A stretch of DNA of 61,786 nucleotides, from NCBI GenBank assembly GCA_037132955.1, contig JBAXPF010000001.1, positions 1-61,786 of the forward strand, written 5' to 3'. Positions within the stretch are counted from its first letter, which is position 1, and every line of letters starts with the position of its first letter. The position numbers and the translations under genes are program-made. The stretch is from Verrucomicrobiota bacterium. GTDB lineage: Bacteria > Verrucomicrobiota > Verrucomicrobiia > Verrucomicrobiales > Akkermansiaceae. Under the pieces are notes generated by a model. It did not search any database, was not told where the DNA came from, and was given only the letters and a program-made list of their open reading frames with translations. This document shows positions 1 through 61,786 of the stretch, piece by piece.

Positions 1-76
1 CAGCCCAAACTGGCATGGCCGCAGGCAATTTTGAATTGAAGAGGAGCCTTGCGCCGGGCGCTCGATTCTGAATACG

Positions 77-118
77 AACATCGAACATTCAACATCGAAC
101 GCTCAACGTCGAACAGAA
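77..118 (+). repeat. Degenerate heptamer tandem array (AACRYYS-like x6)
   Basis: aacatcg aacattc aacatcg aacgctc aacgtcg aacagaa; strict 7-bp period. Confidence 0.85.
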
Positions 119-205
119 GAGGGCGAAAGGAACAGAAGTACAAGGTGACAGATAAAAAGTAGAGAATCTTGTGGATTGTTCGGTTTTCGATGGTATGGTG
201 ACAGG

Positions 206-1312
206 ATGCGTAAAGCACGATGGCTGGCGGGTTGGAAGGACTCGGGCGCGAAGCCGGTGATCTACCACTGTATCTCGCGGGTGGTGGATCGGCGGTTTGT
301 GTTTGAGGAGAAGGAATGCGAGGCGTTCCGGATGTATATGCGGATGTATGAGAATTTCTCGGGCTGCCGGGTATTGTCGTATTGCGTGATGTCTAACCAT
401 TTTCATCTATTGCTGGAGGTGCCGCGGATGGCGGAGGGCGGGCTGAGTGATGAGGTGTTGCTGCAACGTCTTGGCTGGCTTTATTCCGAGGTGGTGGTTG
501 CAGGTGTGGCGGCGGAATTGGCGGAGGCGAGGAAGAATTCCAGCGGCGCGGACGATGGTGCGCATGCTGCGCCTGCCGCGCGGGTGGCGGCCATTCATGC
601 CCGGTTCACCTATCGGATGCACGACCTGAGTGAGTTTATGAAGGGCTTGTTGATCCGGTTCACGCGGTGGTTCAACCGGATGCATTCGCGGTCAGGAACC
701 CTGTGGGAAGAACGCTTTAAGAGCGTGATCGTGGAAAGTGGGGTGGCAGCGCGGACGATGGCGGCCTACATCGACCTCAATCCAGTGCGGGCGGGGATGG
801 TCAAAGATCCGGCGGATTATCGGTGGTGCAGTTATGGAGAAGCGGTGGGCGGCGGGAGGAAAGGGAATGGGAAAAAGGCACGCGAGGGCTTGGTGCGGGC
901 GTATTATTGCGACCAGGGAGTGGGCTTCGAGGCGGATAAATGGCAGGGTGTATCGCGCTTGTATCGGCGGTTGATGGGACTGGCCTTGGGGCGCAAGCCG
1001 GGGCGGGCCGAGGTGGCTGGAGATGGAAATCGTGTGGGCCAAAACACGCTGAACACGGTCGAGATGTTGGAAAGCAAAGATAACGGCACGGTCTTGAAGG
1101 ATCTGGGATTCGCGAAGATGTTGCATTGCCGGGTGAGATATTTCACGGACGGAGCGGTGATCGGCAGCAAGGAGTTTGTGAACGAGGCGTTTGCACGAGC
1201 ACGGGAGCGATTCAGTGCCAAGCGCAAAGATGGGGCGCGGGCAATGCGGGGCAGCGGCAGCGGCGCGAAGGGACTGCTGTGGAGTGTCAGGGATTTGCGC
1301 GTGAGGGTCTGA
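206..1312 (+). mobile_element. Y1 (HUH) transposase, REP-associated tyrosine transposase (RAYT)-like
   Basis: YHCISR N-terminal motif, HUH motif YCVMSNHFHLL, LWEERFKS, YIDLNPVRAG and YRWCSY motifs; ATG at 206 preferred to the ORF start at 176. Confidence 0.9.
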
Positions 1313-1430
1313 AAATAACCCACACATGTCACTTGTCGATGGAGCCAGTCCTGCTTTTCGAGCATAGTGTAGTTGAAGGGTGGCCCCGCATGGCTGATGG
1401 CTACGTGATTCTAAAATAGCGGAATCCGAC

Positions 1431-1459
1431 TTGACAGTCTTACTTTTTGGCATTACCGA
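1431..1459 (+). promoter_or_regulatory. Possible sigma70 promoter of the TA operon
   Basis: Perfect TTGACA at 1431-1436, 30 bp upstream of the ATG; -10 element is weak. Confidence 0.3.
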
Positions 1460-1465
1460 ATCCGC

Positions 1466-3111: not shown

Positions 3112-4944
3112 TCAGTCTGCCTTGATGCGATTTTCGCCCGGCTTGAGGGGGATTTTGCGGCCTGGCAATTTCACTTCGCCAGTCATGCCGGCGGGTAGGG
3201 TGACCGAGCCGGTCAGGGCGGAACCACGTTCCCAGCGCAGGTGGATGAGTCCTTTGGGCGTGGGGACAACACCTTCCGCCCACTGCAAATCACCTAACTT
3301 GGGTTCGACCACGACGGAAGCAAAGCCCGGCTCTGCGGGTTGCACTCCTAACACGTGAGCTGGCAACAGATAGGCCGGGCCGGCCGACCACCCGTGGCAG
3401 CGGCTGCCGGCTGCGTCGGTTTCGTTAGGGTGATCCCCGACTGTTAGGTCACACTTTTCCCAAGTGGTGGTGGCGCCAAAGCTGAGCATGTGGCCATAGA
3501 TTTTGCGGATATCATTGAGAGCGGCTTCGGTCATGCCAGCCCGGAACTTGGCTTCCATCGTCCAGTACAACATGAAGCCGGCCGTTGCCGGCCGCACCTG
3601 CGAGGAGGTCTTGTCGAGTTGTTGCGCCTGCTTGGCGTAGTCGCCCAAGCCGGCCAGCACGCTGAATGAATTGACATGCCACGAGGTGCTGAGTTTTTTC
3701 CCGGCTTCGTCGAGGAAGAACTGTTCGTCCTTATCGAAGTAGGTGTTCATGATGCGTTCGCGTTGGCGTGGCAGGTAGTCATCGCACTGCCGGCGCAGCG
3801 CATCGTCATTCATCACTTGCGCGAGGTAGGACGCATCCTGCATGGCGATGGCAAACTGCATTTCCAACACGCCGTGGGAGCCCCACCAAGCTTCCCCGTA
3901 GCGGCCGTCGGTGATGAAATTGCCCAACGGCTTGAGGTTGGCGGGCTCTTGTTTCATGAGAAAGGGCAGCAGTTTCTGCACCGCCGGCCACAGTTGCGTC
4001 AAGGCGTCCTTATCGCCGGTGAAACGGTAGTAATCGCGCAGGCAGCCGATGTAGTCCAGGCAGTAGTTGACTAAAATCCAGTTGTTGACGCCGCGCGGGA
4101 TGCCGGGCATGTAATTAATGTTAGATGGGTGTTGGCTGGCGCCGGCGCGACTGGCCTGGGCCGGCATGGAGCCATCCGGGTTCTGACTTGCGGCCATCAG
4201 GAACAGGCTCTTGCGCGCCAGATCACGGTCGCCATACACCAAGGCGTTGCACAGGTATTGCACCCGATAGTCGGAGATCCACAGCAAGCCGTCGCGCTTG
4301 ATGCCGTCCTCATAGTATTGCTGCATACACAGCTTGGTCGAGTAGGCGGCGAGTTCCCAGATTTTGTTCAGTTGGGGGTCCGAGCAGGAAAAGGTGCCTA
4401 CCTCGTTGACCGGATAATGCTGCAAGGTCGCCTGCACGCTTTCCAGGGTGATGGGGGCGGCACCGGCGGGCACGATCAGCCGCAGGTAACGAAACGCCCG
4501 CCGGCCATAGTTGCGCAGTTCCTGCGGCCCGGCCTTCACCTCCAGATGATCGATCGGCCGCTTATACCAGCGGGCCGCGTAGTCATTGTCGCGGTGGACT
4601 TCCTGCAGCGCTTCACCGTAGCGGACTTCAAGCTTGGACGGGGCCTCCGCACGCACGCCAAAACGAACCGTGCCGACAATTTCACGGCCGAAATCTAACA
4701 CAACCTCCGCCGCGCCAGACCCCGGTTGAAAAAGCACCGGCTTGCCATCTAACAAAATAACTGCATCGGCCACCGCCTGTGACGACACGATGGCCTTGGG
4801 TGCCACGGGCGTCGTCTTGAGGGTGAAGACGGTTTGCCCGTTGACGGGCGGCTTGGCGGAGTCTTGCGCGACTGCGTCACCTGTCAGGAAAGCCCCCGCG
4901 ACGAGCATTGTCCGCCACACCCCATGCATTGTTTGCCGTGTCAT
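3112..4944 (-). CDS. Alpha-L-rhamnosidase family (GH78) protein
   Basis: LDFGREIVG, DGIKRDGLLWISD, GATTTWE, SRCHGWSAGP, VPTPKG motifs; signal peptide; start uncertain (4944 or 4929). Confidence 0.85.
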   Translation of the reverse strand: MTRQTMHGVWRTMLVAGAFLTGDAVAQDSAKPPVNGQTVFTLKTTPVAPKAIVSSQAVADAVILLDGKPVLFQPGSGAAEVVLDFGREIVGTVRFGVRAEAPSKLEVRYGEALQEVHRDNDYAARWYKRPIDHLEVKAGPQELRNYGRRAFRYLRLIVPAGAAPITLESVQATLQHYPVNEVGTFSCSDPQLNKIWELAAYSTKLCMQQYYEDGIKRDGLLWISDYRVQYLCNALVYGDRDLARKSLFLMAASQNPDGSMPAQASRAGASQHPSNINYMPGIPRGVNNWILVNYCLDYIGCLRDYYRFTGDKDALTQLWPAVQKLLPFLMKQEPANLKPLGNFITDGRYGEAWWGSHGVLEMQFAIAMQDASYLAQVMNDDALRRQCDDYLPRQRERIMNTYFDKDEQFFLDEAGKKLSTSWHVNSFSVLAGLGDYAKQAQQLDKTSSQVRPATAGFMLYWTMEAKFRAGMTEAALNDIRKIYGHMLSFGATTTWEKCDLTVGDHPNETDAAGSRCHGWSAGPAYLLPAHVLGVQPAEPGFASVVVEPKLGDLQWAEGVVPTPKGLIHLRWERGSALTGSVTLPAGMTGEVKLPGRKIPLKPGENRIKAD

Positions 4945-4996
4945 CACGGCGGAGGATGGAGCGCCCGGCCTAACAAGACAAGCGAAACCCGACAAA

Positions 4997-6021: not shown

Positions 6022-6768
6022 ATGCCCTATCAACCCATACCTAACAAAACTTCCGGACCACGTCGCCGTTTCATCCTGCCCGTCTTAGGCGCGCTGGCCA
6101 TCATCACCGGCCCCGCCCGCGCCGCGGAAGCGCCTGACATGCCGGTGTTCAAGCAAAACGCGCGAATCCTGTTTCAAGGCGACTCGATCACCGACGGCAA
6201 CCGCGGCCGCAATGCCGACCCCAACCACATTCTCGGCCACGGCTATTGCTTCATCATTGCGGCCAAATACGGCGCGCAATATCCGGAGCGCAACCTCACC
6301 TTCATGAACCGAGGCTGCAGCGGCAACAAGGTGACCGACCTTGCCGGCCGCTGGCAGAAGGACACTCTCGACCTCAAGCCCGACGTGCTCAGCATCATGA
6401 TCGGCATCAACGACAGCGGCAACATCCCGCTCGACCAATACGAACAAACGTATGACAAATTGTTAGCCGATACCAAGGCCGCCAACCCGGACATCCGCTT
6501 CGTTTTGATCGAACCCTTCTATCTGCCCAAGGACGGCCACAAGGACAACGACGCGCGCGACCAGGACGTCAAGCAACGCCAGGCGATCGTGGCCAAAGTC
6601 GCCGCCAAGCACCAGGCCGCGCTGGTCAAATTGCAGCAGATCTTCGATGACGCCTGCAAGCAGGCCCCCGCCACCTACTGGGTCTGGGACGCCGTGCACC
6701 CCACCTACTCCGGCCACCAACTCATGGCCAACGCCTGGATCAAAACCGTCGGCGAGTTCTATAAATAA
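6022..6768 (+). CDS. Secreted SGNH/GDSL hydrolase
   Basis: FQGDSITD, NRGCSG, IGIND and DAVHP; RRRF N-terminus followed by a hydrophobic stretch. Confidence 0.88.
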   Translation: MPYQPIPNKTSGPRRRFILPVLGALAIITGPARAAEAPDMPVFKQNARILFQGDSITDGNRGRNADPNHILGHGYCFIIAAKYGAQYPERNLTFMNRGCSGNKVTDLAGRWQKDTLDLKPDVLSIMIGINDSGNIPLDQYEQTYDKLLADTKAANPDIRFVLIEPFYLPKDGHKDNDARDQDVKQRQAIVAKVAAKHQAALVKLQQIFDDACKQAPATYWVWDAVHPTYSGHQLMANAWIKTVGEFYK

Positions 6769-6862: not shown

Positions 6863-9800
6863 ATGAGCTCCTCCTCCATCATGAACACGATAGGTTCCCC
6901 CGTCCGGCGGGTTGTGTTGTTAGTTGCGCTTGCAGGTATGGGCGCGAATTCGGTGGCAAGCGCCGCCTCGGGTGGCGCGTTGGGCGTTCCGGTCGGCGGG
7001 GGGAATGCCATCGAACAATGGGCAGCCCAGCCTAGCTCGCCGCCGGCATCCGGCGGCAATCTGCAACCGGGGGCGGTGGCGTTCGAAGTGCCGCCGGGCG
7101 CGGTGGCTGAGCCGCTTGAAGTGGTGGTCAAACTCCGCAAGGGTTCGGTGGCGGCAGGCGTCTGGGCGCAAGCCGACCGCGAGGCGCTGGCTATCGGCCA
7201 GGCGCTGGCCGCGGAAAACGAATTGACATTTTTGTTAGGCAAGCATGGAGTGACCGCGGTCCAGCCGGTCTTCGGGCGTGCCAAACAACCGGGCCAACCC
7301 GCTGTGCCGCAAGGTGCGGGCGGCGTGGCGGTCGCTCCCAACCCGCAGGCGGAACAACGGGCCGCGCTCTTCCGCTGGTGTCGCCTGCAATTGCCCGCCG
7401 GCACCGATCTGCAAAAAGTCATCACCGACCTCAAGGCCAACCCCGCCGTGGAATGCGCCGAACCGGTTCATGAATATAAGTTGTGCGACATTGACCCACC
7501 CATCACCGGGCTGCCCGACAGCACCAGCGACCCGATGATGCCGCAGCAATGGCACCACGCCGCAGCCAAGTCCCAGGCCGCATGGAATTATCTCAAACTC
7601 AATGGTGCTCCGATGGGCGGTTATAGTGACGTGGTGGTGGCCGTGATCGACACCGGCACCGATTACAACCATCAGGATCTCGTCGGTAATATTTGGACCA
7701 ACCCGCGGGAAATTCCCGGCAATGGCATCGATGACGATGGCAACGGCTTCATCGACGACATCCACGGCTGTAGTGTCACCTCTGATTCCCGCAGTCATTC
7801 CGGAGACCCGATCGACCTGCATGGCCACGGAACCCATGTGGCCGGCATCATCGCATCCACTGCCTTCAACCACCTCGGCGGTGTCGGCGTCGCCTTCGGG
7901 GTCAAGATCATGCCCATCCGCGCGGCTCATTACTCGGGCACACTCACCACCACCGACATCTCCGAGGCCGTGCTCTACGCTGTGGACAATGGGGCCGATG
8001 TCATCAACATGAGTTTCGGTGGCTCCCAATACTCGCAGCTCGTAGCCGACACACTCCAAGTCGCGCTTGCGCAAGCCGTGCTGGTAGCGTCAGCCGGCAA
8101 TGGCGGCCCTTACCAGCCCCCGATGTATCCGGCTGCGCTGAAATACGTGATTGGAGTCATGGCCAGTGATGCTGAAGGCAAACCCTGTTGGTTCACTAAT
8201 CTCAAGGGTGATCTGGCTGCGCCAGGTGAAGGCATCCTCAGCACCCTGCCTGGCCACGACTATGCCGCCTGGAGCGGCACTTCCATGGCCGCACCCGTTG
8301 TTGCCGGCGCGGCAGCCCTCATGCGTTCGTATTTCTGGCAACGCGAAATTTGGTCGTCACGCTTCATCATGGGCAGCCTGGTCAACTCCGGTCCCAACCT
8401 CGATATCTACAGGGCCATCACCGAACCTCCTCAGCCCGGGGTGACTTTGCTAGAAACCTGGATGTTCGATGACAAGGGCATCGACCCGGCCAACGACGGA
8501 GACGGGAGGGTGGATTCCGGCGAAACCGTGCATCTTGCCTTGGAGTTAATGAACCGCTCCGGAGAGGCGGAAGGTGTCACCGCCTACCTCCAGGCCTGGG
8601 CCGAGGGAGCGGTCATGCCGGACCCCTATGTCACCGTCACCGTGCCCGAGATTTCCATGGGCAACATAGGCCCCTTCAACACCACCGACAACGGCTTTAT
8701 CTATAACTCAGAGGGCGTCATCACGGGGGTTGATCAACCGTTTGTTTTCGAAGTCTCGAAGGACTGCCCCAACGAGCACGTGATTGAATTTGAATTGACC
8801 ATCAACTTCTATGATGGCTGGAATCCGCAAAACACCGAACCCTACACCCGCATCAGCCGCTTCCAGTATGTCGTCCAGCGCGGCAAGAACCTGCCCACCG
8901 TGATCAGCTCCGACATGGTGCTCACGGCGGATGAATACTGGATCGTCGGTGGTCCCGTCCTGATCGAACCGGGCGCAACTCTAACAATCATGCCGGGCAC
9001 ACAGCTCCAGTGGGGTGCCATCAGCGACGACCCCTACAATCCCGGGCCGCAAACCGGCAACATGGTGGTGCGCGGCAATCTGCGGGTTCAAGGCACCTGC
9101 GAGCAACCGGTGGCGATGTTTCCTTCCTACATGGTTTCCGGGCAAGCCGTGAACATTCGGGTTGATGGTGGCACGGCGGAAATGGCTTACGTTAAGGTGC
9201 GTAGCGCCAATGTGACAGGCTTGGGTGTCATCGATCATGCCTACTTTGACTCTGATCTTGGAAGCGGCGCTACCATCAATGCCGCGCAAATCACGAACAC
9301 CATCTTTCACAAGTTGCGTTACGGCGGGCGGATTTGGGCGAGTTCATTTGAGGGTTGCCTTTTCGGGGCAGGGTGGCTCGGTCCGCAGAGTTCACGCGAC
9401 AACAATACGCCTGCGGCGGCATCACCAAAAATCATCAATTGCACGTTTCTTCAGGATAACGAGAACAACATGCCTCTTAGTATTTATCCTAACAAGAGCT
9501 TGGATACCGCTTTTGTTGGGGGCGTGCCCTCCCAATTCAATGGATCTAACAACTATAGGGGTGCCAAGATAGGGATGTATCGCGCGGTAACGCGAAATGG
9601 CTTCACTTACGTGACGCTACCGGTTGAGAGCACCAGTTATCTCCAGCAAGCCGAGTGGATTGCGCAATCCCTTGGCGGTCATATTACCAGCATTGCAGAT
9701 CAGTCGGAGCAGACATTTCTTGAGAACTACGTTACCTTGCCACCCAGTTTTCCGGCACAACCCCCTCATATGGTCACCTATTTCATTGGCTTGACAGATG

Positions 9801-12800
9801 AAGGCAGCCCGGGAACCTACCGCTGGCTGGACGGCTCACCTCTAAGTTATGTCAATTGGGATGCTGGATTCCCTTCCAGCAGTTCTGCGCTATCACAACC
9901 ATTTGTGGCATTATGCAACTTGGGGGTGGCCTATCCCAGTCGCCATGGCGAAGATCGCAGAGTCTCATGGCTTGGACCATGGCGTAACATGACCAGCGCG
10001 GCAGCAACGAATGCCGACGATTGGTCGTATATGGATGGCTTGGCGTTCATCCTGAAGCTGCCTGGCACTTGGACGGCAGAACAACTGAATGCCGAGGCGG
10101 TCACCCGCAATGCGCTGGAATTTATCCGCCCGCGCATGGGCGGCGATATGACCCACAATGCTTTTCTGAGCAAATATTGGGATCCGAATGTCAATACTTG
10201 GATGCATATCCGCGCGTCGGGTGGTGATTCCCCCACCATGAGTTTTAACTACTTCGCCTCCATGAACTTCAACTATTGGGGCACCACGTCCACAACCTTG
10301 ATCGATCACATGATCGTCGATTACAACGACAACTTCAACAGCGCGCACGTCGATTACGCCCCGGTACAGGCGCATGGCTATGCCGCCACCTATCCCTTCG
10401 TCGAGCAGGTGCTGATCAACGGCATCCCTGCTGAATCGGTGCCGAAGTTTGGCACGGAACGCGCGGATTTCAAGCTGACCTTCAACCGCGATATGGACAT
10501 GACGGTCGAGCCGTTTGTCACTTTTGGCCCGAGTTCACCCTACACCGATTTCCAAGTCACGGCACGCGACGCGGATTTCCAGCCGCTGACCCACGGCTGG
10601 TTGAATCCGCGGACGTGGCAGGGCTCGGCATGGATCACGCCGATGAGTGGGGACGGCTATCATTTGATGCGCATTTCGGGCGCAGTGGCGGCGGATGACC
10701 CATGGCTGGTTACTGGTTATGATGTCGGGCGCTTCCGCTTCGAGGTGCGCTCGATGGAAGTAGCGGCCATGACCCTGCAAGCCAACGGCCAGGAAGGGGC
10801 GATTCACCTACAATGGCAGCAGGATGATTTCGATTTGCTCGCTGGCTACAACCTCTATCGGGCCACCAGCGCGTCTGGGCCCTGGGTGAAACTCAACACC
10901 ACCCTGATCCCGCCGGGTTCGGAAAACTATGACGACCTGGCCGTGGCACCGGCAGTGCCGATGTATTACAAATTCAGCGTTTTGAGTACGGACTTCCAAG
11001 AGAGCGATTTCTCCAACGTGGCGATGGCGGCGGCGATCGACACGGTGATGCCGACAATCACCCACGTGCCGGTCACCACCGCGGCCCCGGCACGCGGGAT
11101 GCGCGTCACGGCCACCGCCACCGACAACCTGCGGGTGACAGCCGTCACCGTCCATTACCGGGCCTTGGGTGCCACAGGCGCCTACACGGTGATGTCTGCG
11201 GCCAACCTAACAGGAAATACCTGGACGGCGACCCTCCCCGGTTCGGCGGTGGTGGCGCCGGGCTTGGAGTATTATGTGGTGGCGACGGATGGCATCAGCG
11301 AGGCGTTCAGCGGCACGCCGGTGTTGCCGCATCAGGTGACGGTGAGCAACGTGCCGACCCTGGCTTCGGTGACTCCGGGCAGCGGTCCGGCAACGGGTGG
11401 CACATCAGTCACCCTGAGCGGCATGTTGTTTGATCCCGGCATCTCGGTGTTGTTCGGCGGAGTGCTGGCAAGCAATGTCCAGGTAATCAACTCCGGCCAA
11501 TTGACCTGCGTGACCCCCGCCCATTTTCCGGCCACGGTGGATGTCAAGGTGGTCAACGCCGACCTCACCGAGAGCACTTTGCTGAACGGCTTCCGCTTCG
11601 AGGATACCGGGGTGGTGGTGTCCGCGCCTAACACATTGGGCAATTTTGGCAGCCAGGTGGACATTGCGGTGTCGGCATCCAACTTGGTCGGGTTGCTCGG
11701 CGCGGATCTAACGATCACCTGGAATCCGGCGGTGCTCACGGCGGTGAGCGCCCGTGTCGGCACGGTCACCGCCGGTTGGGCTATTGCTCCCAACCTCAGC
11801 ACTGCGGGCCGGGCGGTGCTGTCATTGGCCAGTGCCAGTGCCGTGAGTGGCAGCGGGTCGCTGGTGATCCTGCGTTTCAATGTCATCGGCAGCCCGCCGG
11901 TCTCGACGCCGTTGGTGATTGAGAGCGTGTCGCTCAATGACGGTGCGATGACAGCTTCCCGCAGTGAGGGTCTGTTCACCGTGAACGGCTTCTTTGATCT
12001 GGCGGGTACGGTGCGCTACTTCAAGACCGGCACTGCGGTGCCGGGTGCGGCATTGTCGCTGGCGGGCGTGGGCAGTTTCCCCGCCACCACCGGGTCAAAC
12101 GGAAATTTCGCCCTGACCAGCATTCCGACCGGGAGTTATATGTTAACTCCGACGAAGGCGAATGATGTGAACGGTGCGATCACCGCGTATGACGCGTCGC
12201 TGGTGTTGCAAAAGGCGGCGGGCTTGATCACGCTGTCGGCCGAGGAAACCCGCGCGGCCGATGTAAACCGCAATGGCATCGTCTCCGCGATGGATGCTTC
12301 CTATATCCTTGGAGCCGCGGTCGGGATCAATTCGTTGCCATTCCCCGGTGCCGGCCGGGTCTGGGATTTCCTGCCGGACCAGCGGACCTACAGCCTGCTC
12401 AATACCAATCTGACAGGTCAGGATTTCACGGCGGTGTTGCTTGGCGATGTCTCGGCCAATTGGAGCCCCGGGAGCGTGCCACAGTCGATCATCCAAACGG
12501 GGGCGGTGGCGTATGCCTTGGTGCATGACGCGGTCAACACCCCGGATCGCAACACGGCATGCCTGCTGGTCAGGACGACCCAGCCCGCGATCTACGGCTT
12601 GGATCTATCCGTAAGTTATGACCCCGCACTCACGCTCTTGGAAGTGCGGGTGGGCGCCCTCGGCTCGAATCATACGGTGGCGTTTCATTCGCCGGCCGCG
12701 GGTAGCGCCCGGATTGCGGCAGCCAGCGCGTTGCCGGTGTCAGGCGAGGGAGTCATGTTGGAACTGCATTTCAGCGGGCCGCCCGGCAACGTGGCGGTGA

Positions 12801-13234: not shown

Positions 13235-13236
13235 GG

Positions 13237-13294: not shown

Positions 13295-14122
13295 TCACGG
13301 CTCGCCGATGGTCGGTTGGGGGACGGCCATGGCGGTGGCTTTGACGCCGCGGGTGAGGACTTCCTTGGCGGACTTGCTGTCCGGAGCGACCTCGCGGGCC
13401 ATGCCACGATAGCGCAGCGCTGTGTAGCCGAGTGCGAGCAGGGCGTCCAACGGTGCCTGTTTGAGGCCGGGTTTCCAATAGTCGGGAGCGCCGCCGGTTT
13501 CGTAATAGTAGAGCCAGGTGTGCTCCGGATTGGACCAACCGGCGCAAAGGATCACATGGCGGTGGGGGATGTTGAGCACGTCGCCGGGCCGCAAGTCGCG
13601 CGCGCTGGGCAATTCCGTGCAGACGGCAGGCAACTGGGTGGTGTCATGCACGGCGGGCAGCTTCAAGCAGCGCGAGACGAAGCCGGAACAATCGACCCCG
13701 GCCGCCTGAGCGCTCACGGCGGCGTTGTCGGCCCGGCGTTTTTCCGGAGAGGAAACATCGCCGCCGGCCAGACCCTTGGCGATGGCCGCATCAAACGTGG
13801 CGGGATCATCAAACCCGCCCCATTTGTAGGGAATACCGGTATTGACCTCGCCTGGAATCCACCACCCCTTGCGCGGCAACCCCGGTTCGTGGCTGACGTC
13901 CGGCGTGTTGACCCGAATGCCGGCCTTGTCCATGGCGTGCAGCATGTTGTTAGAAAACGGTCGCCACGGGTGGGTGGCGAGGCTTTGGGCGATGGCGATC
14001 GACTCGCTGGGTGTGAGCTGCGAGGGGGCGCTGGCGTCGCCCGGCACGAGCGGCACCGTGGGTGGCGGCGGCACGGCACAGCTGGTGACGAGCAGCAGCA
14101 AGGGCAAGGAAAAAATTTTCAC
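13295..14122 (-). CDS. NlpC/P60-like lipoprotein
   Basis: GTG start, lipobox LLLLVTSC; GIPYKWGG, VDCSGFVSR and LRPGDVL..HVIL motifs. Confidence 0.75.
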   Translation of the reverse strand: MKIFSLPLLLLVTSCAVPPPPTVPLVPGDASAPSQLTPSESIAIAQSLATHPWRPFSNNMLHAMDKAGIRVNTPDVSHEPGLPRKGWWIPGEVNTGIPYKWGGFDDPATFDAAIAKGLAGGDVSSPEKRRADNAAVSAQAAGVDCSGFVSRCLKLPAVHDTTQLPAVCTELPSARDLRPGDVLNIPHRHVILCAGWSNPEHTWLYYYETGGAPDYWKPGLKQAPLDALLALGYTALRYRGMAREVAPDSKSAKEVLTRGVKATAMAVPQPTIGEP

Positions 14123-15845: not shown

Positions 15846-16475
15846 ATGGCAATTGATCCAAAACTGGCGGATGACCTGAAATCGCAGGGAGTGCATGTCA
15901 CTTCCTTTGAGAGCTTGATCAATTGGGGGCGCGCCAGCTCGCTGTGGCCGCTGCAATTCGGCCTTGCCTGTTGCGCCATCGAAATGATCGCCGCCACCAT
16001 GGCGAAATACGACATGGCGCGCTTTGGCGCGGAGGTGTTCCGGCCTTCGCCGCGGCAGGCGGATCTGATGATTGTGGCCGGCACGGTGACCAAAAAAATG
16101 GCACCGCAAGTCGTCCGCCTCTACAACCAAATGGCCGAACCGAAATACGTCATCGCCATGGGTGCCTGCGCAATTTCCGGCGGCCCCTTCAAGGACGGCT
16201 ACAATGTGCTCAAAGGCGTTGATCGCTTCATCCCGGTGGACGTATCCATTCCCGGATGCCCGCCGCGACCCGAAGCGTTGTTGCACGCATTGATCACCCT
16301 GCGCGAAAAAATCGCCAAGGAAAAACTCATGGGCAAAACCCGTGCCCGCCACGCCGATCCGAACGGCCCCGGGGACCTCGCGGTGCCCGTATTCGGCGCT
16401 CACGACATTGAACCGACTTTCAACCCGGACGTTTGGAATCCGCCGCTCATCACCCGCGAAGCCAGCGAATCATGA
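15846..16475 (+). CDS. nuoB: NADH-quinone oxidoreductase subunit B
   Basis: [33 protein letters not shown] and IPGCPPRPE. Confidence 0.96.
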
Positions 16476-17074: not shown

Positions 17075-17131
17075 ATTCTAAACACAAAATCCAAAATTTG
17101 AGTCCCGTGGTTTCTAACTGAATTTACCAGA

Positions 17132-18292: not shown

Positions 18293-18299
18293 GCCATTC

Positions 18300-53083: not shown

Positions 53084-54526
53084 TCACTGGATGGGTGCGA
53101 GCAGGCGTGCGGCGCGGCAGGCCGCGCGAAACAAGAAGGAACTCTTGGTAAAATCCTCCACTCTGGCCTCACGCGCATGCTTGAAGTCGAGCACCAGCAT
53201 CCGTGTGACCTGCTCGACAAAGCGCGGATCCGGCGAAAATGCGGTGATCTCGAAGTTGAGGCGGAACGAGCGGTTGTCGAGATTGGCGGTGCCCACCGCC
53301 GCCAGTCGGTCGTCTATCAACATCACCTTCTGATGGAGGAAGCCACGGTGGTAGCGGAACAATCTCACGCCGTAGGGAATCGATTGCTCGTAGTAGGAAA
53401 AGGCCGACAACCAGACTAACAGGTGATCGGCCCGCTCGGGCAGCAGGATGCGCACGTCCACCCCGCGGATGGCCGCCGCCTGCAAGGCGGTTAGAACACC
53501 CTCGTCCGGGACGAAGTAGGGCGAGGTGATCCACAGGCGATGACGCGACGAGTTGGCGGCCTCCGCCACCACCAGTTGCCAGGAATCCGCGGGATCGGCC
53601 GGGCCGGTCGGGATGATGGCCGCCACTTGGTCGGCGGCTTCCGGGCGGGTGGTCCAACGCAATTGTGGCACGGTTTCCGACGCCCAGAACCAATCTTCGA
53701 GAAAGACCATCTGCACGGCCTGCACCGCCGGGCCTTGGAGTTGCAGGTGGGTGTCCCGCCAGGGGCCGAACTTCACATCGCGGCCGAGATATTCATCGCC
53801 CACGTTGAGTCCGCCGAGAAAGGCGGTCTTGCCATCGATGACGACGATTTTGCGGTGGTTGCGGAAGTTCACCTGCAGCCGCGACCACCAATGGCGGTTG
53901 GTGCCGAACGAGCGGCACTCGACCCCGGCATCGCGCAACGTCCGCAGGTAGTGGTGTGGCAACTTGTGCGAGCCGAATTCATCAAACAAGAACAAGACTT
54001 TCACGCCGGCTTGCGCGCGTTCGACGAGTGCCTGTTGGAAGCGCTTGCCGAGTTGGTCGTTTTTGACGATGAAGAAATTGACGCACAGATACTCGCGTGC
54101 CTGCCGCATCTCGCGGAACAAGCGCTCGAACATTTCCTCGCCATCGATCAACAACTCCAGCGCGTTGCCCCGCGTGAAGGGCAGCCCGCCCAGAATCATC
54201 GCCGCCCGGGCAAACGCGTCCTCGTCGGGAATCTCGATCTCATAGCGCCGCAAGCGCCGGTGCATGGACTCGGCCAGCTTGCGCAGGCGTTCATCGCCCG
54301 CCCGCCGGCCGCGCACATAGCCGGAAAACCGGCTCCGCCCGACCACCCAATACAAGGGAATCGCCAGATAGGGGAAGGTCAGCAGAAAAATCACCCAGGC
54401 AATGGTGCCTTGGGCTGTTCTAACATGCATCAGCGCGTGCAGCACGTGCAGCAAGCCTATCAGTTCGAGCGCCAGCCACCCCAGCAAGCTGAGCATGGGC
54501 ATGAGTTCCGGACTGATCAACGCCAT
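53084..54526 (-). CDS. cls: Cardiolipin synthase
   Basis: Two HKD motifs (NHRKIVVID, LHQKVMLID), N-terminal TM helices, WRDTH and SPYFVPD. Confidence 0.93.
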   Translation of the reverse strand: MALISPELMPMLSLLGWLALELIGLLHVLHALMHVRTAQGTIAWVIFLLTFPYLAIPLYWVVGRSRFSGYVRGRRAGDERLRKLAESMHRRLRRYEIEIPDEDAFARAAMILGGLPFTRGNALELLIDGEEMFERLFREMRQAREYLCVNFFIVKNDQLGKRFQQALVERAQAGVKVLFLFDEFGSHKLPHHYLRTLRDAGVECRSFGTNRHWWSRLQVNFRNHRKIVVIDGKTAFLGGLNVGDEYLGRDVKFGPWRDTHLQLQGPAVQAVQMVFLEDWFWASETVPQLRWTTRPEAADQVAAIIPTGPADPADSWQLVVAEAANSSRHRLWITSPYFVPDEGVLTALQAAAIRGVDVRILLPERADHLLVWLSAFSYYEQSIPYGVRLFRYHRGFLHQKVMLIDDRLAAVGTANLDNRSFRLNFEITAFSPDPRFVEQVTRMLVLDFKHAREARVEDFTKSSFLFRAACRAARLLAPIQ

Positions 54527-54626: not shown

Positions 54627-56648
54627 ATGACCCGAAATTCATGGCTTGATGCCGGCCAATGGCTGGCGACGTCGGACACTGCCATTGCGCTCCACGGAGT
54701 GGACATCGCGATCCTGCTGATTTACGTGCTGGTGGTCGTCGCCATCGGCTTTGCCTTGAAACGGCACATGAAATCCTCGGCGGACTTCCTGACGTCCGGA
54801 CGTTCGATTCCCGCGTGGGTCACCGGCCTGGCCTTCATGTCCGCCAATCTCGGTGCCCTTGAATTGGTGGGCATGACCGCCTGCGGCGCGAAATACGGCA
54901 TGGCCACCTGCCATTTTTACTGGGTGGGGGCGATCGCGGCGATGGTGTTTTTGGCGGTGTTCATGATGCCGTTTTATTACGGGTCAAAGGCCCGCTCGGT
55001 GCCTGAATACCTGAAACTCCGCTTTGACGAACGGGTTCGCTGCCTGAACTCTATCACCTTTGCCGTGATGACCGTGTTTGCCTCCGGCATTTCCATGAAC
55101 GCCCTGGCCAAACTGCTCCATCAGTTGTTAGGCTGGGATTACAGCGTCAGCTTGTGGCTGTGCTCGGTGGTGGTGCTCATCTACGTGCTCAAAGGCGGCC
55201 TCACCTCCGCGATCTACACGGAAGTCCTGCAGTTTTTCATGATCGTCCTGGGATTTTCGCCGGTGGTCTATCTGGGCATGCGGGACATCGGCGGCTGGCC
55301 CCGGCTCAAGGAAATCCTCGGGCATGTGGCGCAGAATCCGTCCTCCATCGGGCTCAAACCGGAGGGCGTTCACTATGCAGCCAACGCTTGGACCAGCGTC
55401 TGGGCGCCGCTGCTCGGGGGTGGCCAAGCCAACCCGATGGGGGTCGATTGGTTTGCGATGTTTTTCGGTCTCGGCTTCGTGCTCGCGTTTGGCTATTGGT
55501 GCACCAATTTCCTTGTCATCCAGCGCGCCATGGCGGCCAGAAATATGACAGCCGCCCGCAACACCCCGCTCATCGCCGCCGTGCCGAAGATGTTTCTACC
55601 GTTGCTCGTCATTCTTCCAGGAATGCTCGCCGCCGGCCTTGCCTACCGCGCCAAGGATGCCGACAACGGTTATCGCCTGCCACCCAAGGCCATCGAACCG
55701 GCGGCCTATGCCACCATGCTGCCCGTGGTGAAACACGCCGCGGCTAATAATCTAACTGCTCCAGCGGCCCTGGCGGCTATCAACCAGGCGCTCGGCTCCG
55801 CCGCCAACGATCTGAAACTCAGCGAGGAAAAAATCGGCAAGCTGGTGGCCGCGGTGGCCGCCAATCCCGCCCTGCCCGCAGCCGCGATGGAAACATCGCT
55901 GCAGAATGCGGTGAAGGAAACCGACTTCGACGGCGTGATTCTCTCGCTGGTGAAGCGGTATTGTCCGCCGGGAATGCTCGGGCTGGCGCTCACCGCGCTG
56001 CTGGCGTCGTTCATGTCCGGCATGGCGGGCAACGTCACCGCCTTCAACACGGTGTGGACCTATGATCTCTATCAAGCTTATATCGCTCCGGACAGGAGTG
56101 ACGCCCACTACATGTGGATGGGGCGTTGTGTCACCGTGGTTGGCATCCTGCTGAGCATCGCCTGCGCCTATTTTGCCGCGAACTTCAACAACGCCATGGA
56201 CATCTGCCAGTTGGTGTTCAGCTTTGTGAACGCGCCGCTGTTCGCCACTTTTCTGTTAGGAATGTTCTGGGCGCGCACCACCGGCACCGGGGCCTTTTAT
56301 GGCTTGCTTGGCGGCACGGCCACTTCCGCGTTGTTTCACGGCATGACGCTGGCCGAGGGCAATATCCCCGGCGTGAAGGGTGGCTACTTCGGAGTGCAGC
56401 ACACCTTCCCCTCGGAGATGGCACAGAACTTCTGGCTGGCAACCTTTGCCTTCACGATCTGCCTGGCTCTAACCGCCGTGTTGTCGCTGGCAACCCGCCG
56501 CACCAAGACCGATGAGGAACTCAAGGGCCTCGTCTATTCGATGACGCCGCGGCTCGTTGTAGAAAACCAGCCGTTCTATCAGCGCCCGGCGGTGTTGGGC
56601 GGCGTCCTGTTTGCCATCTGCATCGTGCTCAACATCATCTTCTGGTAA
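54627..56648 (+). CDS. Sodium:solute symporter family protein
   Basis: DFLTSGRSIPAW, SVPEYLKLRF, GGLTSAIYTEVLQ, QRAMAA and ALLASFMS. Confidence 0.92.
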   Translation: MTRNSWLDAGQWLATSDTAIALHGVDIAILLIYVLVVVAIGFALKRHMKSSADFLTSGRSIPAWVTGLAFMSANLGALELVGMTACGAKYGMATCHFYWVGAIAAMVFLAVFMMPFYYGSKARSVPEYLKLRFDERVRCLNSITFAVMTVFASGISMNALAKLLHQLLGWDYSVSLWLCSVVVLIYVLKGGLTSAIYTEVLQFFMIVLGFSPVVYLGMRDIGGWPRLKEILGHVAQNPSSIGLKPEGVHYAANAWTSVWAPLLGGGQANPMGVDWFAMFFGLGFVLAFGYWCTNFLVIQRAMAARNMTAARNTPLIAAVPKMFLPLLVILPGMLAAGLAYRAKDADNGYRLPPKAIEPAAYATMLPVVKHAAANNLTAPAALAAINQALGSAANDLKLSEEKIGKLVAAVAANPALPAAAMETSLQNAVKETDFDGVILSLVKRYCPPGMLGLALTALLASFMSGMAGNVTAFNTVWTYDLYQAYIAPDRSDAHYMWMGRCVTVVGILLSIACAYFAANFNNAMDICQLVFSFVNAPLFATFLLGMFWARTTGTGAFYGLLGGTATSALFHGMTLAEGNIPGVKGGYFGVQHTFPSEMAQNFWLATFAFTICLALTAVLSLATRRTKTDEELKGLVYSMTPRLVVENQPFYQRPAVLGGVLFAICIVLNIIFW

Positions 56649-56854: not shown

Positions 56855-58081
56855 ATGACTTCCTCGCCCATTTCCATCGTCTGCCTTTGGTTGGGCCTCG
56901 GTCTGGCCAGTGGCGCTGCTGCCGCCACCGCAACAACTCCCGCCGGTGAGCCCACAGGACTCCTCACCGGCAAACTCGCGAACGGCTCCGCGTATGACAC
57001 CTTGTGGTCGGTGCCACTGCTCTACAAGAATGAGGCCAACCCGCTGCTGCAGGAGTTGGCGCTTCAAGGTCACCTGCAGACGCAATATGCCTCCGGCTCC
57101 AATGGCAGGGGCCATTTCGGCACCTATGACTTGTCGGACAAATGCACATGGGACGACGTGGATGTCCGCCGGTTCCGGGTGGGACTCAGGGCGCGGGTGC
57201 TGGGGAACTGGAAACTGCACACATTGTTTGATATCTATCCGGACCTGGAGCCGCGCATCTACAAGGGCATTGCGGAAGCCTATATCAGCTATGCCCCCTG
57301 CGATGCCTTCAACATTTCGCTTGGCAAGGCCGAGTTGAAATTCACCCGTGAGCAGGAGTATTCATCGCGCGACCATCTCCCTTTCGAGCGTTCGCAGATT
57401 GTCAACCAGTTCTATGGCGGCGAACTGACCGGCATGTGGGTTTCCGGCAAGGGTATTGGCGGCGGCTGGCTCTATGAGCTGGGTGCCTACGGCAATGACC
57501 GCCGCGACGAATGGAGCGAGTTCAACGCTGGTGCCATCGTTCTCGCCAAACTCGGCTACAACTACAGCAAGGCGTCCGGTTTGGATTTTGCCCAGGCCGC
57601 CATCCATTACCTGCACAACACCGAACCCGGTTACTTCGTGCACGGCTGCTCAGTGCCATCCCCGTCTTACTCGGACTGCATTGCCTTGTCTAACGATCTA
57701 ACAAACGGGCGTCTCTCCCTGGTGACCGAGTTGTTCTGGGGTGATGGTGCCATGGGCCGCCCTGATATCTATGCCTTCACCGCCATGCCCACCTGCTACC
57801 TGGTTCCCACCAAGTTGCAACTTGTCACCACCTTCCAGTTTGCCGGCAGCCATGACCCTAACGGGGTGTGCCTGCCCACTCGCTATGAGGCTCTGGCACC
57901 GGGCACCGGCGACAAGGCGGGCGACGCCTACTTCGCGGGATACGCCGGCTTGAACTATTATTTCTATGGCCAGAAACTCAAGGTGATGTCCGGCGTCAAA
58001 TACACCCACCTCGACGGCGGCCCCGGCGGCGGCAACTCCAACGGCTGGACCTGGCTGGCCGGCTTGCGCAGCGCGTTCTAG
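56855..58081 (+). CDS. Outer-membrane porin (OprO/OprP-like)
   Basis: Signal peptide, RRFRVG, alternating beta-strand pattern, C-terminal Phe. Confidence 0.75.
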   Translation: MTSSPISIVCLWLGLGLASGAAAATATTPAGEPTGLLTGKLANGSAYDTLWSVPLLYKNEANPLLQELALQGHLQTQYASGSNGRGHFGTYDLSDKCTWDDVDVRRFRVGLRARVLGNWKLHTLFDIYPDLEPRIYKGIAEAYISYAPCDAFNISLGKAELKFTREQEYSSRDHLPFERSQIVNQFYGGELTGMWVSGKGIGGGWLYELGAYGNDRRDEWSEFNAGAIVLAKLGYNYSKASGLDFAQAAIHYLHNTEPGYFVHGCSVPSPSYSDCIALSNDLTNGRLSLVTELFWGDGAMGRPDIYAFTAMPTCYLVPTKLQLVTTFQFAGSHDPNGVCLPTRYEALAPGTGDKAGDAYFAGYAGLNYYFYGQKLKVMSGVKYTHLDGGPGGGNSNGWTWLAGLRSAF

Positions 58082-59200: not shown

Positions 59201-59235
59201 TGAGCCCGTTTGGATTCGGGTGTTCGGCGGGCTCA
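59201..59235. terminator. Hairpin between convergent genes
   Basis: TGAGCCCG..CGGGCTCA stem. Confidence 0.4.
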
Positions 59236-60078
59236 GCCGGCGGACCACTGGCGCAGGCGCTCCGCGGAGAGTTTGACGGCTTCCTCGCCGGCGATCTCCA
59301 GAGTGGTGGGACCATCAAAGCCGGTGGCTAACAACTCCTTGACGAGCACCTCAAGGCCGACGATGCCGTCACCTAACGGAATGAGACCCATCCCGCAGCC
59401 GAACTGGGTGCCGCGTTTGGACAGCATCTCGGCGGGCATGTCCTTCCAATGCACATGTTTGATGCGCGGGCCGAAGGTCTTGATGAACTGTAGCGGATCG
59501 CCGCCGCCGAGCCATGAGTTGCCGGTGTCAAGGTTGATGCCGACGGTGTCCTCGTTGCCCAGCGCGTCAAGGATGCGGGTCATGCCGTCCACGGTGTCGG
59601 TGAGGATGCCGTGCGGTTCTAACAAAAGTTCGATGCCCAGGGCCTTGGCCCAGCGGACGGGTTCCTGGAGTTTTTCACGGATGCTGAAGATCCGTTGGTC
59701 GTCGGTGAGGTGATGGCCGAAGTCGGTTTTCGGGTCGCCCTCGGTGGTGATGACTTGTTTGACGCCGAGGAAATGGGCGAGCTTGATGGCCTTGATGATT
59801 TCGGCGGTGCCGTAGCGGTCCGGCGAGGTCGGATCGAGCAAGTTGGCGTGGGCGCAGACGCTGGTGAGCGTGAGCCCGAACTCGTTGACCATGTCAAGGA
59901 TGGTCGCCGGATGCGAGTCGAGGCTGATTGAGGCGGAGAAACCATATTCGGTGCCGAGGGTGGCGCCGTCGTGGTTGTCGGTTAGGTCGGCGTAATCGAA
60001 GCCGAGTTCACGGATGAGTTCGAATTGCCGCCGCATGGGCGAGAACGGTTGGATGAGGGCGAAGCAGCCGATTTTCAT
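59233..60078 (-). CDS. Sugar phosphate isomerase/epimerase (IolE-like TIM barrel)
   Basis: LLEPHG, INLDTGN, HVHWKD, IPLGDG and FDGPTTLE. Confidence 0.88.
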   Translation of the reverse strand: MKIGCFALIQPFSPMRRQFELIRELGFDYADLTDNHDGATLGTEYGFSASISLDSHPATILDMVNEFGLTLTSVCAHANLLDPTSPDRYGTAEIIKAIKLAHFLGVKQVITTEGDPKTDFGHHLTDDQRIFSIREKLQEPVRWAKALGIELLLEPHGILTDTVDGMTRILDALGNEDTVGINLDTGNSWLGGGDPLQFIKTFGPRIKHVHWKDMPAEMLSKRGTQFGCGMGLIPLGDGIVGLEVLVKELLATGFDGPTTLEIAGEEAVKLSAERLRQWSAG

Positions 60079-60103
60079 GGTGTTGGGGGATTGGGGTGGG
60101 GGA

Positions 60104-60979
60104 TCATTTCGCCATGCGCTCGGCGTCGGCCTGGGAGGCAGGCCAGTCTTTGGCGGGGGGGAGGGTGACTTTGTGAGTGGCGGCCCATTCGGTGCCGCGT
60201 TGGAGCAGGGTCCGCCAGGCGGTGTTCTTCATGGCGGTGGCGTCGTGGCCGAGGAAAATGGCGAACCCACGGGCGCCGCCGCTTTCGGTGGTGAAGAGAA
60301 TATTGTTATGATTGGCGGGATCCGTGGCGTTGGGCGTGGCGGCATTCGGTGGTGCGACGGTGGCCAAGGCCTTGGCACCGGCGGCCACCCCGGCGTTGTG
60401 CCAAAACTCATCGCGGATCCAGAACGGCGCGAGGCCGGCGGTGATCGGGCTTGGTTCCGCGGTGAAGGCGACCCGGTCAATGTGGATCGCGCCGTGACTG
60501 GTGGCGTCCTGCCATGCCCCGCAGGCCAGTTTTTGAAACTCCGGCCAATCGTAAAACACCGAACTGCCAGCATGCACAATGACCAAGCCGTGACCTTGCC
60601 CAAGGTGATCGAGCAGCGCCTTGCGCATCGCCGCATCCCAGACTTGGAGCGATTTGTCCTTGCCGAAGAGATTGAAATCACTGAGGACCACCGCATAGGG
60701 GGCAAAGGCCTCAGGCTTCATGCCCGCCACGTTGTTTTCGACGTCCACGCTGAAACGCCCGCTCTCTTCCAGGGTGGCCTTGATGGCCGGGGTGGTTTCC
60801 TGCCACTTGTGGTTGTTCGCTCCGCTCAGAATCAGCACGCGCAGCTTGGCTTCTTCCGCCCGCACGGGGTGGGCGGCCAGGCTGGCCACCCCGGCAAGCA
60901 GCACCAGCCCGAACCAACGGCGGGCAATGCGCCGGGTGCCGGAACCTGGGAACGCATCAAGCAACAAGCGGGAACACAT
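60104..60979 (-). CDS. ThuA-like domain secreted protein
   Basis: VLILSGANNHKW, GLVIVHAG, DEFW, FLGHD and RGTEWAAT. Confidence 0.82.
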   Translation of the reverse strand: MCSRLLLDAFPGSGTRRIARRWFGLVLLAGVASLAAHPVRAEEAKLRVLILSGANNHKWQETTPAIKATLEESGRFSVDVENNVAGMKPEAFAPYAVVLSDFNLFGKDKSLQVWDAAMRKALLDHLGQGHGLVIVHAGSSVFYDWPEFQKLACGAWQDATSHGAIHIDRVAFTAEPSPITAGLAPFWIRDEFWHNAGVAAGAKALATVAPPNAATPNATDPANHNNILFTTESGGARGFAIFLGHDATAMKNTAWRTLLQRGTEWAATHKVTLPPAKDWPASQADAERMAK

Positions 60980-61249
60980 GGCCGAAACCTAGCACCCGCG
61001 GCTGCGGGAAAACTTCCAAATCCATTCACTGGTAAATATTGCAATAAGCGGGCGCGCCCCGGAAGAGGCCCCGCGAATGGGCTGTCGCGAATGGGCTTGC
61101 CAACCCGCGCCGGTTGGCTACATTGACGCCTGAGAAACTCTCCCATCAAGCTGACGACCCACTCCATACCCCGGCGCGATTCCAACCGGCCAAGGCCCTG
61201 CAAGGCCTTCCTCCTGTGTTTCGTCCTGCCATTTCTCGGCGGGTGCAGT

Positions 61250-61696
61250 ATGGTCGGACCCTTGATCGGCGCGGCCCTGCCGCTGGCCGGAGTCAAGCTG
61301 GCTTTTTCCTGTCTCCCTGAGCATACCCTGGTGGACACCCCCTCCGGTCCGCGGGCGGTCGAACGACTGGAAGCCGGCGACTGGGTGACCGGCTATTCCG
61401 GCAAGCCGGTGCGCATCCTGCAAAAACATTCCTATCTGGAAAATCCGGCCACCGTGTTTTTGCGCATCGGCTTTGACGACGGTGCGGCGGTGGACCTGTG
61501 CGGGATGCACCGCGTGGCCGGCATCCGGGCGCGCGACCTGCGGGTGAACCAGATTGTCGCCGGCCGCAAAATCATCCGCATCGAGTCCCGCCGCGGCGTC
61601 ACCCGCTCCTTCGACCTGCTGACCACGGATGCCGGCTACCGGATCGGCGGGGTGCCGGTCAACAGCATGATCGAGGAAATGCTCGCCGCTTGTTAG
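61250..61696 (+). CDS. Stand-alone Hint (intein-like) domain protein; probably extends upstream as a lipoprotein
   Basis: S/CLPEHTLVDTPSG..VERLEAGDWV (block A), LCGMH (block B), SFDL..YRIGGVPVN/S (blocks F/G); upstream in-frame KAFLLCFVLPFLGGC. Confidence 0.8.
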   Translation: MVGPLIGAALPLAGVKLAFSCLPEHTLVDTPSGPRAVERLEAGDWVTGYSGKPVRILQKHSYLENPATVFLRIGFDDGAAVDLCGMHRVAGIRARDLRVNQIVAGRKIIRIESRRGVTRSFDLLTTDAGYRIGGVPVNSMIEEMLAAC

Positions 61697-61786
61697 CAAA
61701 CCACCAGCGGCTGCACCTTCCACACCTGGTCGCAATAGTCGCGGATCGAGCGGTCGGAGGAGAACTTGCCCATGCGCGCCACGTTG
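61693..61786 (-). CDS. glgP: Glycogen/alpha-glucan phosphorylase, C-terminal fragment (runs off the window)
   Basis: Minus-strand translation NVARMGKFSSDRSIRDYCDQVWKVQPLVVC*; FSSDR.I..Y..W is the GT35 C-terminal motif. Confidence 0.9.
   Translation of the reverse strand, partial: NVARMGKFSSDRSIRDYCDQVWKVQPLVVC

Follow-up and report, generated by a model that had tools for sequence, protein, structure and literature searches.

The word and its setting in the window

The stretch considered here, hereafter the window, is the whole of positions 1 to 61,786 of contig JBAXPF010000001.1 from a freshwater Luteolibacter-like metagenome-assembled genome (GCA_037132955.1; 4.64 Mb in 628 contigs, denoted G000, with further G-numbers for the comparison genomes). 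Dispersed through it in both orientations is a seven-base word, YCTAACA (TGTTAGR on the opposite strand), which lies largely inside genes as called with a custom hexamer-based open reading frame caller, among them a nuoD-like gene. We counted 45 exact copies, 24 on the forward and 21 on the reverse strand, with 40 of the 45 inside called genes (Table 1), while the mean over 100 dinucleotide shuffles was 3.66 and the highest count 8. An earlier note, made from the letters of the window alone, had estimated about 45 copies in both orientations and about 100 of the core CTAAC/GTTAG; both figures hold, and all 17 heptamer coordinates quoted there are among the exact matches. Its view that the excess is confined to the heptamer, with some 80 cores expected by chance, has to be given up, as 106 cores compare with 27.7 expected under a second-order Markov model.

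The excess is imposed on coding sequence. After 200 shuffles of synonymous codons the genes of the window held a mean of 2.45 and a maximum of 7 copies, against 39 observed, and the codon-preserving null that the earlier note had named as its own test of refutation thus leaves the word standing. The nuoD-like gene has exactly four CTA or TTA leucine codons, and all four lie within CTAAC/GTTAG, as had been remarked. This tie is genome-wide: 2,310 of 4,164 CTA codons stand before AC or TC, and 1,956 of 3,119 TTA codons in the context G-TTA-G. Long pieces of the window are matched without any difference by contigs from an independent lake-water run (X2), so the word is not an assembly artefact, an explanation also ruled out by the sister genomes.

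Table 1. Positions of the word, of its weaker copies in the nuoD-like gene and of that gene in the window; copies fall within called genes unless noted.
Feature	Positions	Strand
YCTAACA/TGTTAGR, dispersed window-wide (45 copies, 106 cores)	1-61786	both
nuoD-like gene (Complex1_49kDa); CTA/TTA Leu codons at 17216, 17618, 17750, 18194	17132-18292	+
Weaker copy CCTAAC (TCG TTA GGC on +)	17215-17220	-
Weaker copy TCTAAC (AAT CTA ACC)	17749-17754	+
CCTAACA	3347-3353	+
CCTAACA	3442-3448	-
TCTAACA	4119-4125	-
TCTAACA	4694-4700	+
TCTAACA	4748-4754	+
CCTAACA, outside called genes	4969-4975	+
CCTAACA	6040-6046	+
CCTAACA	7233-7239	-
TCTAACA	8980-8986	+
CCTAACA	9488-9494	+
TCTAACA	9545-9551	+
CCTAACA	11206-11212	+
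CCTAACA	11627-11633	+
CCTAACA	13159-13165	+
TCTAACA	13948-13954	-
TCTAACA	14464-14470	-
TCTAACA (GAT CTA ACA), in nuoD-like gene	17617-17623	+
TCTAACA (AAT CTA ACA), in nuoD-like gene	18193-18199	+
TCTAACA	19337-19343	-
CCTAACA	19823-19829	-
TCTAACA	20871-20877	-
TCTAACA	22376-22382	-
TCTAACA	22853-22859	-
CCTAACA	24343-24349	+
CCTAACA	24458-24464	-
TCTAACA	25078-25084	-
CCTAACA	25674-25680	+
CCTAACA	32256-32262	+
CCTAACA, outside called genes	33006-33012	-
TCTAACA	33647-33653	-
CCTAACA	35861-35867	-
TCTAACA	37872-37878	+
TCTAACA	39630-39636	-
TCTAACA, outside called genes	40950-40956	-
TCTAACA, outside called genes	41052-41058	-
CCTAACA	42630-42636	+
TCTAACA	46229-46235	+
TCTAACA	48247-48253	-
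TCTAACA	48426-48432	+
CCTAACA	49293-49299	+
TCTAACA, outside called genes	54419-54425	+
CCTAACA	55126-55132	-
CCTAACA	56254-56260	-
TCTAACA	57697-57703	+
TCTAACA	59618-59624	+

Abundance and anatomy across the genome

Across G000 the word occurs 2,939 times (1,529 on the forward and 1,410 on the reverse strand), and when 5- to 9-mers are ranked against a second-order Markov model, YCTAACA or words overlapping it come out on top. The 3,184 genes hold 2,496 copies, as compared to about 190 after synonymous shuffling, with 1,230 in sense and 1,266 in antisense orientation and four frame and strand classes occupied. The core is likewise over-represented (5,724 against 1,615), and the heptamer is as dense in coding DNA (0.64 per kb) as in non-coding DNA (0.60 per kb). 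Codon choice is overridden where the word can be spelled: leucine ahead of an ACA codon is written CTA in 635 of 1,159 cases, with CTA at 3.2% among all leucine codons, and proline ahead of AACA is CCT in 65% (n = 563), versus 3% before other contexts starting with A. Peptides able to encode the word are also modestly commoner, [FDYNI]LT standing at 1.25 of expectation versus 0.98 in motif-poor genomes.

The site is graded, with the consensus aYCTAACAaaw combining an asymmetric core and an A/T-rich 3' flank, and CTATC and CCAAC are weaker enriched variants, the former also conserved. Counts per gene are under-dispersed (chi-square 2,860 for 3,184 genes), and no terminator pairing, helical phasing, local clusters or promoter position was found for the word in G000. 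A rise just upstream of gene starts, on the sense strand, probably reflects upstream TAA stops. Occupancy falls to 0.71 of expectation in genes with a G+C content at third codon positions (GC3) of 0.6-0.7, and low-GC contigs are motif-poor, congruent with the depletion in recently acquired DNA that had been proposed as a check, GC being only a proxy for acquisition. Several very long genes are nearly devoid of the word. A mutL-like gene (contig C93, 8677-10551, labelled by eye from its N-terminus) carries 7 copies against 2.0 expected, which may be chance among 3,184 genes. Separately, G000 avoids GTAC, TTAA and CTTA (0.2-0.36 of the synonymous-shuffle expectation) along with several six-base palindromes.

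Orientation and mutual avoidance

The orientation of the word follows base composition. With contigs sorted by skew, 54-59% of copies lie on the keto-rich strand, compared with 54-60% for similarly skewed control words, and long contigs are balanced in G121 and G015 (53 versus 52 in the first 1.09 Mb of the latter). Polarity of the kind known for Chi and for FtsK-orienting polar sequences (KOPS), or for primase sites, is ruled out, since no replichore polarity is present beyond base composition; for Chi and KOPS this bears out what had been argued from the window. A phage primase has been described that uses CTAAC/CCAAC (PMC12205980), which we consider a resemblance only; strand-specific use of this type is unlikely because copies on opposite strands also avoid each other.

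This avoidance is local. In G000 the four shortest distance bins, each of 50 bp, have pair densities of 0.41, 0.67, 0.61 and 0.80 relative to random; the density reaches 1 near 250 bp and remains at a plateau of about 1.1 beyond, whereas control words cluster, being at or above 1 at short range. With amino-acid context as a covariate, a neighbour within 60 bp shifts occupancy by log-odds of -0.6 to -1.0 in all four geometries, an effect that fades by 200 bp, and close inverted pairs are the most depleted class. The behavior was replicated in G121 (26 pairs versus 46 expected under 200 bp), in the sister genome G211 (48 versus 94 under 100 bp) and in 17 other loci (14 versus 30). From 0.5 to 15 kb pair density in G000 is flat and shows no 10-bp phase, the contigs being too short for the periods of 10-90 kb expected of a HIP1-type word. 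With copies balanced between strands and avoidance seen in every geometry, the reader of the word appears to act on double-stranded DNA regardless of orientation, and we infer that a single copy is enough for about 200 bp.

Neighbours in opposite orientation that face each other with their 5' (Y) sides are in excess at 300-600 bp in G000 (+0.43 and +0.26 log-odds, with a background of about +0.15), this being one of 24 coefficients.

Gain, loss and turnover

Some 600 kb of the sister genome (5.6 Mb, about 92% identical in genes) were compared with G000. At fourfold sites T is retained in 48% and A in 53% of cases, while inside the word the corresponding sites are kept in 25 of 29, 25 of 28 and 25 of 28, in line with the conservation at synonymous sites that the earlier note had asked after. 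A two-state estimate from 243 orthologs of the pair gives gains raised 2.3- to 9.1-fold and losses reduced to 0.15-0.25 at five synonymous word positions (log-odds shifts of 2.7 to 3.9), and two further synonymous positions show no changes in 68 and 83 sites. What maintains the word is thus a selection-like force, exerted on double-stranded DNA, and not a mutation hotspot. Together with the genome counts and the synonymous nulls, these rates support the proposal of a genome-wide, selected or actively maintained word. Raised gain with lowered loss is predicted by both selection and biased conversion, and the data from the sister genome do not separate the two.

A context-dependent hotspot, for example through C-to-T deamination, or an effect on codons or translation would draw on the otherwise avoided TA step and the rare codons that the word contains. 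A hotspot however predicts an unchanged loss, whereas losses are cut 4-7 fold; positions that change by transversion are conserved too, which together rule out a single C-to-T hotspot, and mutation context cannot create a 200-bp avoidance. A codon or translation effect is in turn ruled out by the equal abundance of sense and antisense copies, by the density in non-coding DNA and by the avoidance also seen in Pro/Ser-Asn frames, which lack rare leucine codons. Explanations of this class are already largely refuted and in our view hardly credible.

The individual sites turn over and are not permanent. Of the contexts that are occupied in G000, 17 of 52 carry the word in the distant G121 too, as do 27 of 132 unoccupied ones (p 0.09); the corresponding counts for motif-poor genomes are 0 of 30 and 1 of 126. 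Private copies number 58 in G000 and 30 in the sister genome. A mismatch-repair strand signal that lowers local divergence was also considered and dropped, as an early dip vanished with better controls.

Distribution across relatives

Among 194 genomes of the genus the density of YCTAACA is lowest in G057, with about 10 per Mb, and highest in G049, with about 1,490 per Mb. Ranked by hand, 26 of the 194 are motif-rich (at least 500 per Mb) and 32 motif-poor (at most 58 per Mb); for gene searches the former were used with 30 of the latter, two incomplete ones being dropped, yielding 56 genomes. In samples of seven motif-poor genomes CTAAC is below expectation (16 versus 58), and these samples hold no replacement word of similar strength. 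The base after CTAACA varies as well, being mostly A in G000, G in G049 and mixed in G121.

None of 200 other Verrucomicrobiota genomes, drawn evenly, shows the word. In these the CTAACA/GTAACA ratio never exceeds about 1.6, versus 10.2 in G000, and the CCTAAC/GTAACA ratio never exceeds about 3.1, versus 6.2 (all read off by hand), and none has thousands of CCTAAC. A weak GCCTAAC/CCTAACA version is present in another family of the same order, in G034 (CCTAAC 30 versus 13.5) and G038. Three Chthoniobacterales-like genomes and eight loci displayed no genome-wide excess, islands not being looked for, and two Terracidiphilus-like genomes, G418 and G419, are without a genome-wide word (CTAAC 78 versus 95 and 33 versus 48 expected). 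These two Acidobacteriaceae have a patchy, clustered excess of TAACT/CTAACT (CTAACT 38 versus 17 in G418), unlike the evenly spread word of G000. A DNA search with the nuoD gene for long-contig relatives was positive in 0 of 5 cases. We found no description of the word in Verrucomicrobiota in the open-access literature, and the earlier note knew of none either. New here are the genus-wide range, the gain and loss rates, the replicated 200-bp avoidance and the mixed result on a link to integrons; the range, the avoidance, the CTATC and CCAAC variants and a match to the ends of integron attC sites also extend beyond the earlier note.

A possible uptake or recombination tag

By analogy with DNA uptake sequences (DUS) and uptake signal sequences (USS), the word may be a tag of self in uptake or recombination, a reading that we tentatively prefer to its rivals and hold to be possible, if somewhat short of probable. 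Uptake and copying into the chromosome would favour fragments carrying YCTAACA, and motif-bearing alleles would therefore win short conversion events. One copy per fragment of about 200 bp would suffice, judging from the spacing. Recombination biased by uptake, and not selection acting on a bound protein, would be the force, and the putative reader would be a pilus- or surface-associated protein. USS comprise a short essential core with AT tracts, and uptake by H. influenzae gains nothing from a second USS less than 100 bp away (PMC7811141); saturation of this type would yield short-range avoidance under drive. A neighbour lies within 100 bp for 23% and within 30 bp for 17% of the H. influenzae sites (PMC7811141), and by our own arithmetic 6% outside terminators have one at 30-100 bp, versus about 13% expected for one site per kb. 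DUS furthermore come in species dialects (PMC3630211; for further comparison, PMC4889954, PMC12614218 and PMC3146285). Slight support is also lent by G+C at unrelated fourfold sites, which in G000 is raised by 0.7 points at distances of 12-50 bp from the word and falls off outward.

A number of observations weigh against such a tag. The genes comEC and dprA are each present in 55 of 56 genomes, and pilT exceeds the cut-off in 54; this accords with an uptake tag but does not discriminate, because the three are equally present in motif-free genomes. No ComEA-sized HHH_3 protein was detected in any of five genomes tested, the only HHH_3 matches over the cut-off sitting in frames of 767-983 amino acids that are probably Tex, and one comEC copy of G000 (contig C86) is frameshifted relative to the sister genome. 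Synonymous divergence from the sister genome is flat around shared copies (0.98-1.01), and the G+C halo was not replicated in G121 and G049 combined, where power is low (standard error about 0.7), while part of the gradient also surrounds one of the control words. The mutual avoidance is weak or absent in G049 (40 versus 41 pairs under 100 bp), a small sample of 75 kb. Moreover, the 200-bp scale is far below the conversion fragments of 1.1-1.7 kb in Neisseria (PMC2397512), and the spelling shared with attC ends is left unexplained.

The comEC gene of G000 is split over two contigs (C86, 11810-13506, and C124, 102-992) with overlapping parts that differ, and the C86 copy has the frameshift named above; a genuine pseudogene, a mixture of strains or a faulty assembly may lie behind this.

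Should the uptake tag be real, matched fragments of 200-500 bp with TCTAACAA would be preferred over those without it, and sequence-specific natural transformation, with very short fragments, would exist in the Planctomycetes-Verrucomicrobia-Chlamydiae (PVC) group.

Nucleoid proteins and modifying enzymes

Alternatively, an abundant protein that organises the chromosome (a nucleoid protein) may bind the word, with weak selection per site keeping up the density. Each complex would occupy or serve some 200 bp, and extra copies within this footprint would then bring no benefit. The results on selection, spacing, orientation-independence and turnover fit such a site equally well, as does a small excess of neighbours at 300-400 bp; it is independent of ComEA, and a role in chromosome structure was proposed for the highly iterated palindrome HIP1 on similar conservation evidence (PMC5861425). 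No candidate protein was found, however: a histone-fold protein occurs in 0 of 56 genomes, and HU/IHF-family genes, found in 5 of 5 genomes, do not set motif-rich ones apart from motif-free ones. The flat pair density and missing helical phase likewise speak against it, and it would be odd for an architectural signal to have been lost altogether from several species of the genus. We consider a nucleoid site somewhat unlikely. Of the three functions that the earlier note had listed, it nevertheless stays in consideration, as does an uptake sequence.

The third, HIP1-like methylation, has lost support. An orphan DNA-modifying enzyme would mark the word and mark-directed repair would rewrite mismatches toward it, according to the Elhai model as described for HIP1 (PMC4390886). 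Repair biased in this way would likewise lead to higher gains and lower losses, and a short range of exclusion could result from it. None of the four methyltransferase families tested is common to motif-rich genomes, though: a C5 methyltransferase is missing from 7 of the 26, several of them 96-100% complete, and N6/N4 (PF01555), N6_Mtase (PF02384) and Dam-like (PF02086) enzymes of matching size are not shared by rich genomes in five-genome checks. Regarding phosphorothioate, DndC is present in 0 of 5 genomes, and a DUF4007 search aimed at SspB was negative in five, with a control that was also silent, and is thus uninformative. As the word is not a palindrome either, a HIP1-type mark is highly improbable.

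Resemblance to integron sites

A different reader is suggested by spelling. In attC the consensus of the R' box is GTTRRRY, and TTGT/T is found on the bottom strand at R'' (PMC7923331), and for secondary sites of the integrase the consensus is GWT, or TGWT for IntI2 (bioRxiv 10.1101/2022.09.11.507474, where the supplementary attG logos may bear on this), and GWTMW (PMC4618277). The reverse strand of the word, TTGTTAGRT, fits the attC core and the TTGT/T of the bottom strand; its tolerated GTT or GAT variants match the secondary-site consensuses, with CTATC both enriched and conserved, and a tolerance of T>C>>G at the purine position matches that of integrases. An integron-integrase-type tyrosine recombinase, or a domesticated relative, could hence recognise the word as an R-box half-site and bias allele survival in local recombination or repair. 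The genus does carry real integrons, as 20 regions around intI hold 24 attC candidates by our own heuristic, 21 of them with AA after AAC, and IntI exceeds the cut-off in 20 of 26 motif-rich versus 10 of 30 motif-poor genomes (Fisher p 0.0014, without correction for kinship).

The same candidates also argue to the contrary, as 20 of 24 are spelled GAAC/GTTC and only 4 TAAC/GTTA, and this majority spelling is depleted in the genes of G000 (CGAACA 1,836 versus 2,766). IntI is neither necessary, being absent from the motif-rich G049, G121 and G102, nor sufficient, being present in the motif-free G057 and G208, and no attC array was found in G000 itself. Copies in G000 are single half-sites: no pairing at recombinase spacing, no excess of inverted pairs at 60-150 bp, the distance that separates R'' from R' in an attC site with its paired L boxes, and no one-sided conversion tract was seen. 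A site-cutting enzyme would further be expected to erode its site rather than enrich it. As to a separate link with the XerD arm of dif, no dif site was located in the genus, and the predicted dif arms of three other Verrucomicrobiota (PMC3025954) are without the word. Aggregated, an integrase-type reader is unlikely.

A broader version holds that such a recombinase reads lone R boxes chromosome-wide and drives its own site into genes by biased local conversion, and that putatively related CTAAC-core words of the GCCTAACG type in other phyla would be the same phenomenon, forming a new class distinct from uptake sequences, HIP1 and Chi. We found no genome-wide enrichment of R boxes in the literature and regard this version as distinctly doubtful. 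A causal attC-like spelling would imply an integron-type enzyme that reshapes host genes.

Other features of the window

An intergenic hairpin at 20346-20445 of the window is made of degenerate 7-base tandem units of the AAGACAG type (53 arrays). Genome-wide, G000 has 188 arrays of 7-base units, other families being AACATCG/AACATTG, which end in AAC as do attC R boxes. The region 15846-21052 holds four complex-I-like genes, the nuoD-like gene among them, which encode a 4Fe-4S protein and the 20, 30 and 49 kDa subunits. No membrane-arm genes adjoin these four; after them come genes for a PduS/RnfC-like flavoprotein and for a microcompartment shell protein with tandem domains. The 49 kDa subunit has close relatives in Acidobacteriaceae as well. 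At 257-2142 an IS200-family transposase gene precedes a MazE-type antitoxin and PIN-domain gene pair, and the first YCTAACA is at 3347.

Comparison with known systems

Well-studied hyper-abundant words that override codon usage are known from few groups, namely Neisseriaceae, Pasteurellaceae and cyanobacteria. The present word comes from a verrucomicrobial genus of fresh water, and its density among 194 congeners varies between nil and 1.5 copies per kb. Such variation is a natural experiment through which regression on gene content could reveal the reader, and it also bears on a long-standing question, namely whether selection or molecular drive keeps words of this kind in place. Chi and KOPS are likewise short, non-palindromic and over-represented; the word differs from them in having no replichore polarity beyond base composition.

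In its anatomy the word is closest to the DUS of Neisseriaceae and the USS of Pasteurellaceae, with which it shares thousands of non-palindromic copies on both strands inside genes, conservation above background, few close neighbours outside terminators, a core with an A/T-rich flank, 3'-flank dialects between species and scarcity in foreign-looking genes. It differs in its unrelated sequence, in a shorter core of 5-7 bases and in the absence of terminator inverted pairs, close inverted pairs being depleted here, the last two of which add to the points against an uptake tag, as well as in a density that varies 150-fold within one genus. Because of the unrelated sequence, the missing terminator pairs and a ComEA that was not found, we do not file it as a DUS or USS.

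HIP1 and the alternate HIPs of cyanobacteria resemble it in having about one copy per gene, in the use of rare codons, in loss from some lineages and in codons more conserved inside than outside the word (PMC5861425), but HIP1 is palindromic, whereas the Luteolibacter word is non-palindromic, A/T-rich and without a cognate methyltransferase found. Finally, as lone half-sites in ordinary genes, with no hairpin or L box and with most resident attC spelled otherwise, the copies depart from the R boxes of attC and attI and from IntI secondary (attG) sites, yet they share with these the spelling GTTRRRY, TTGT/T and GWT/TGWT in a genus that has integrons.

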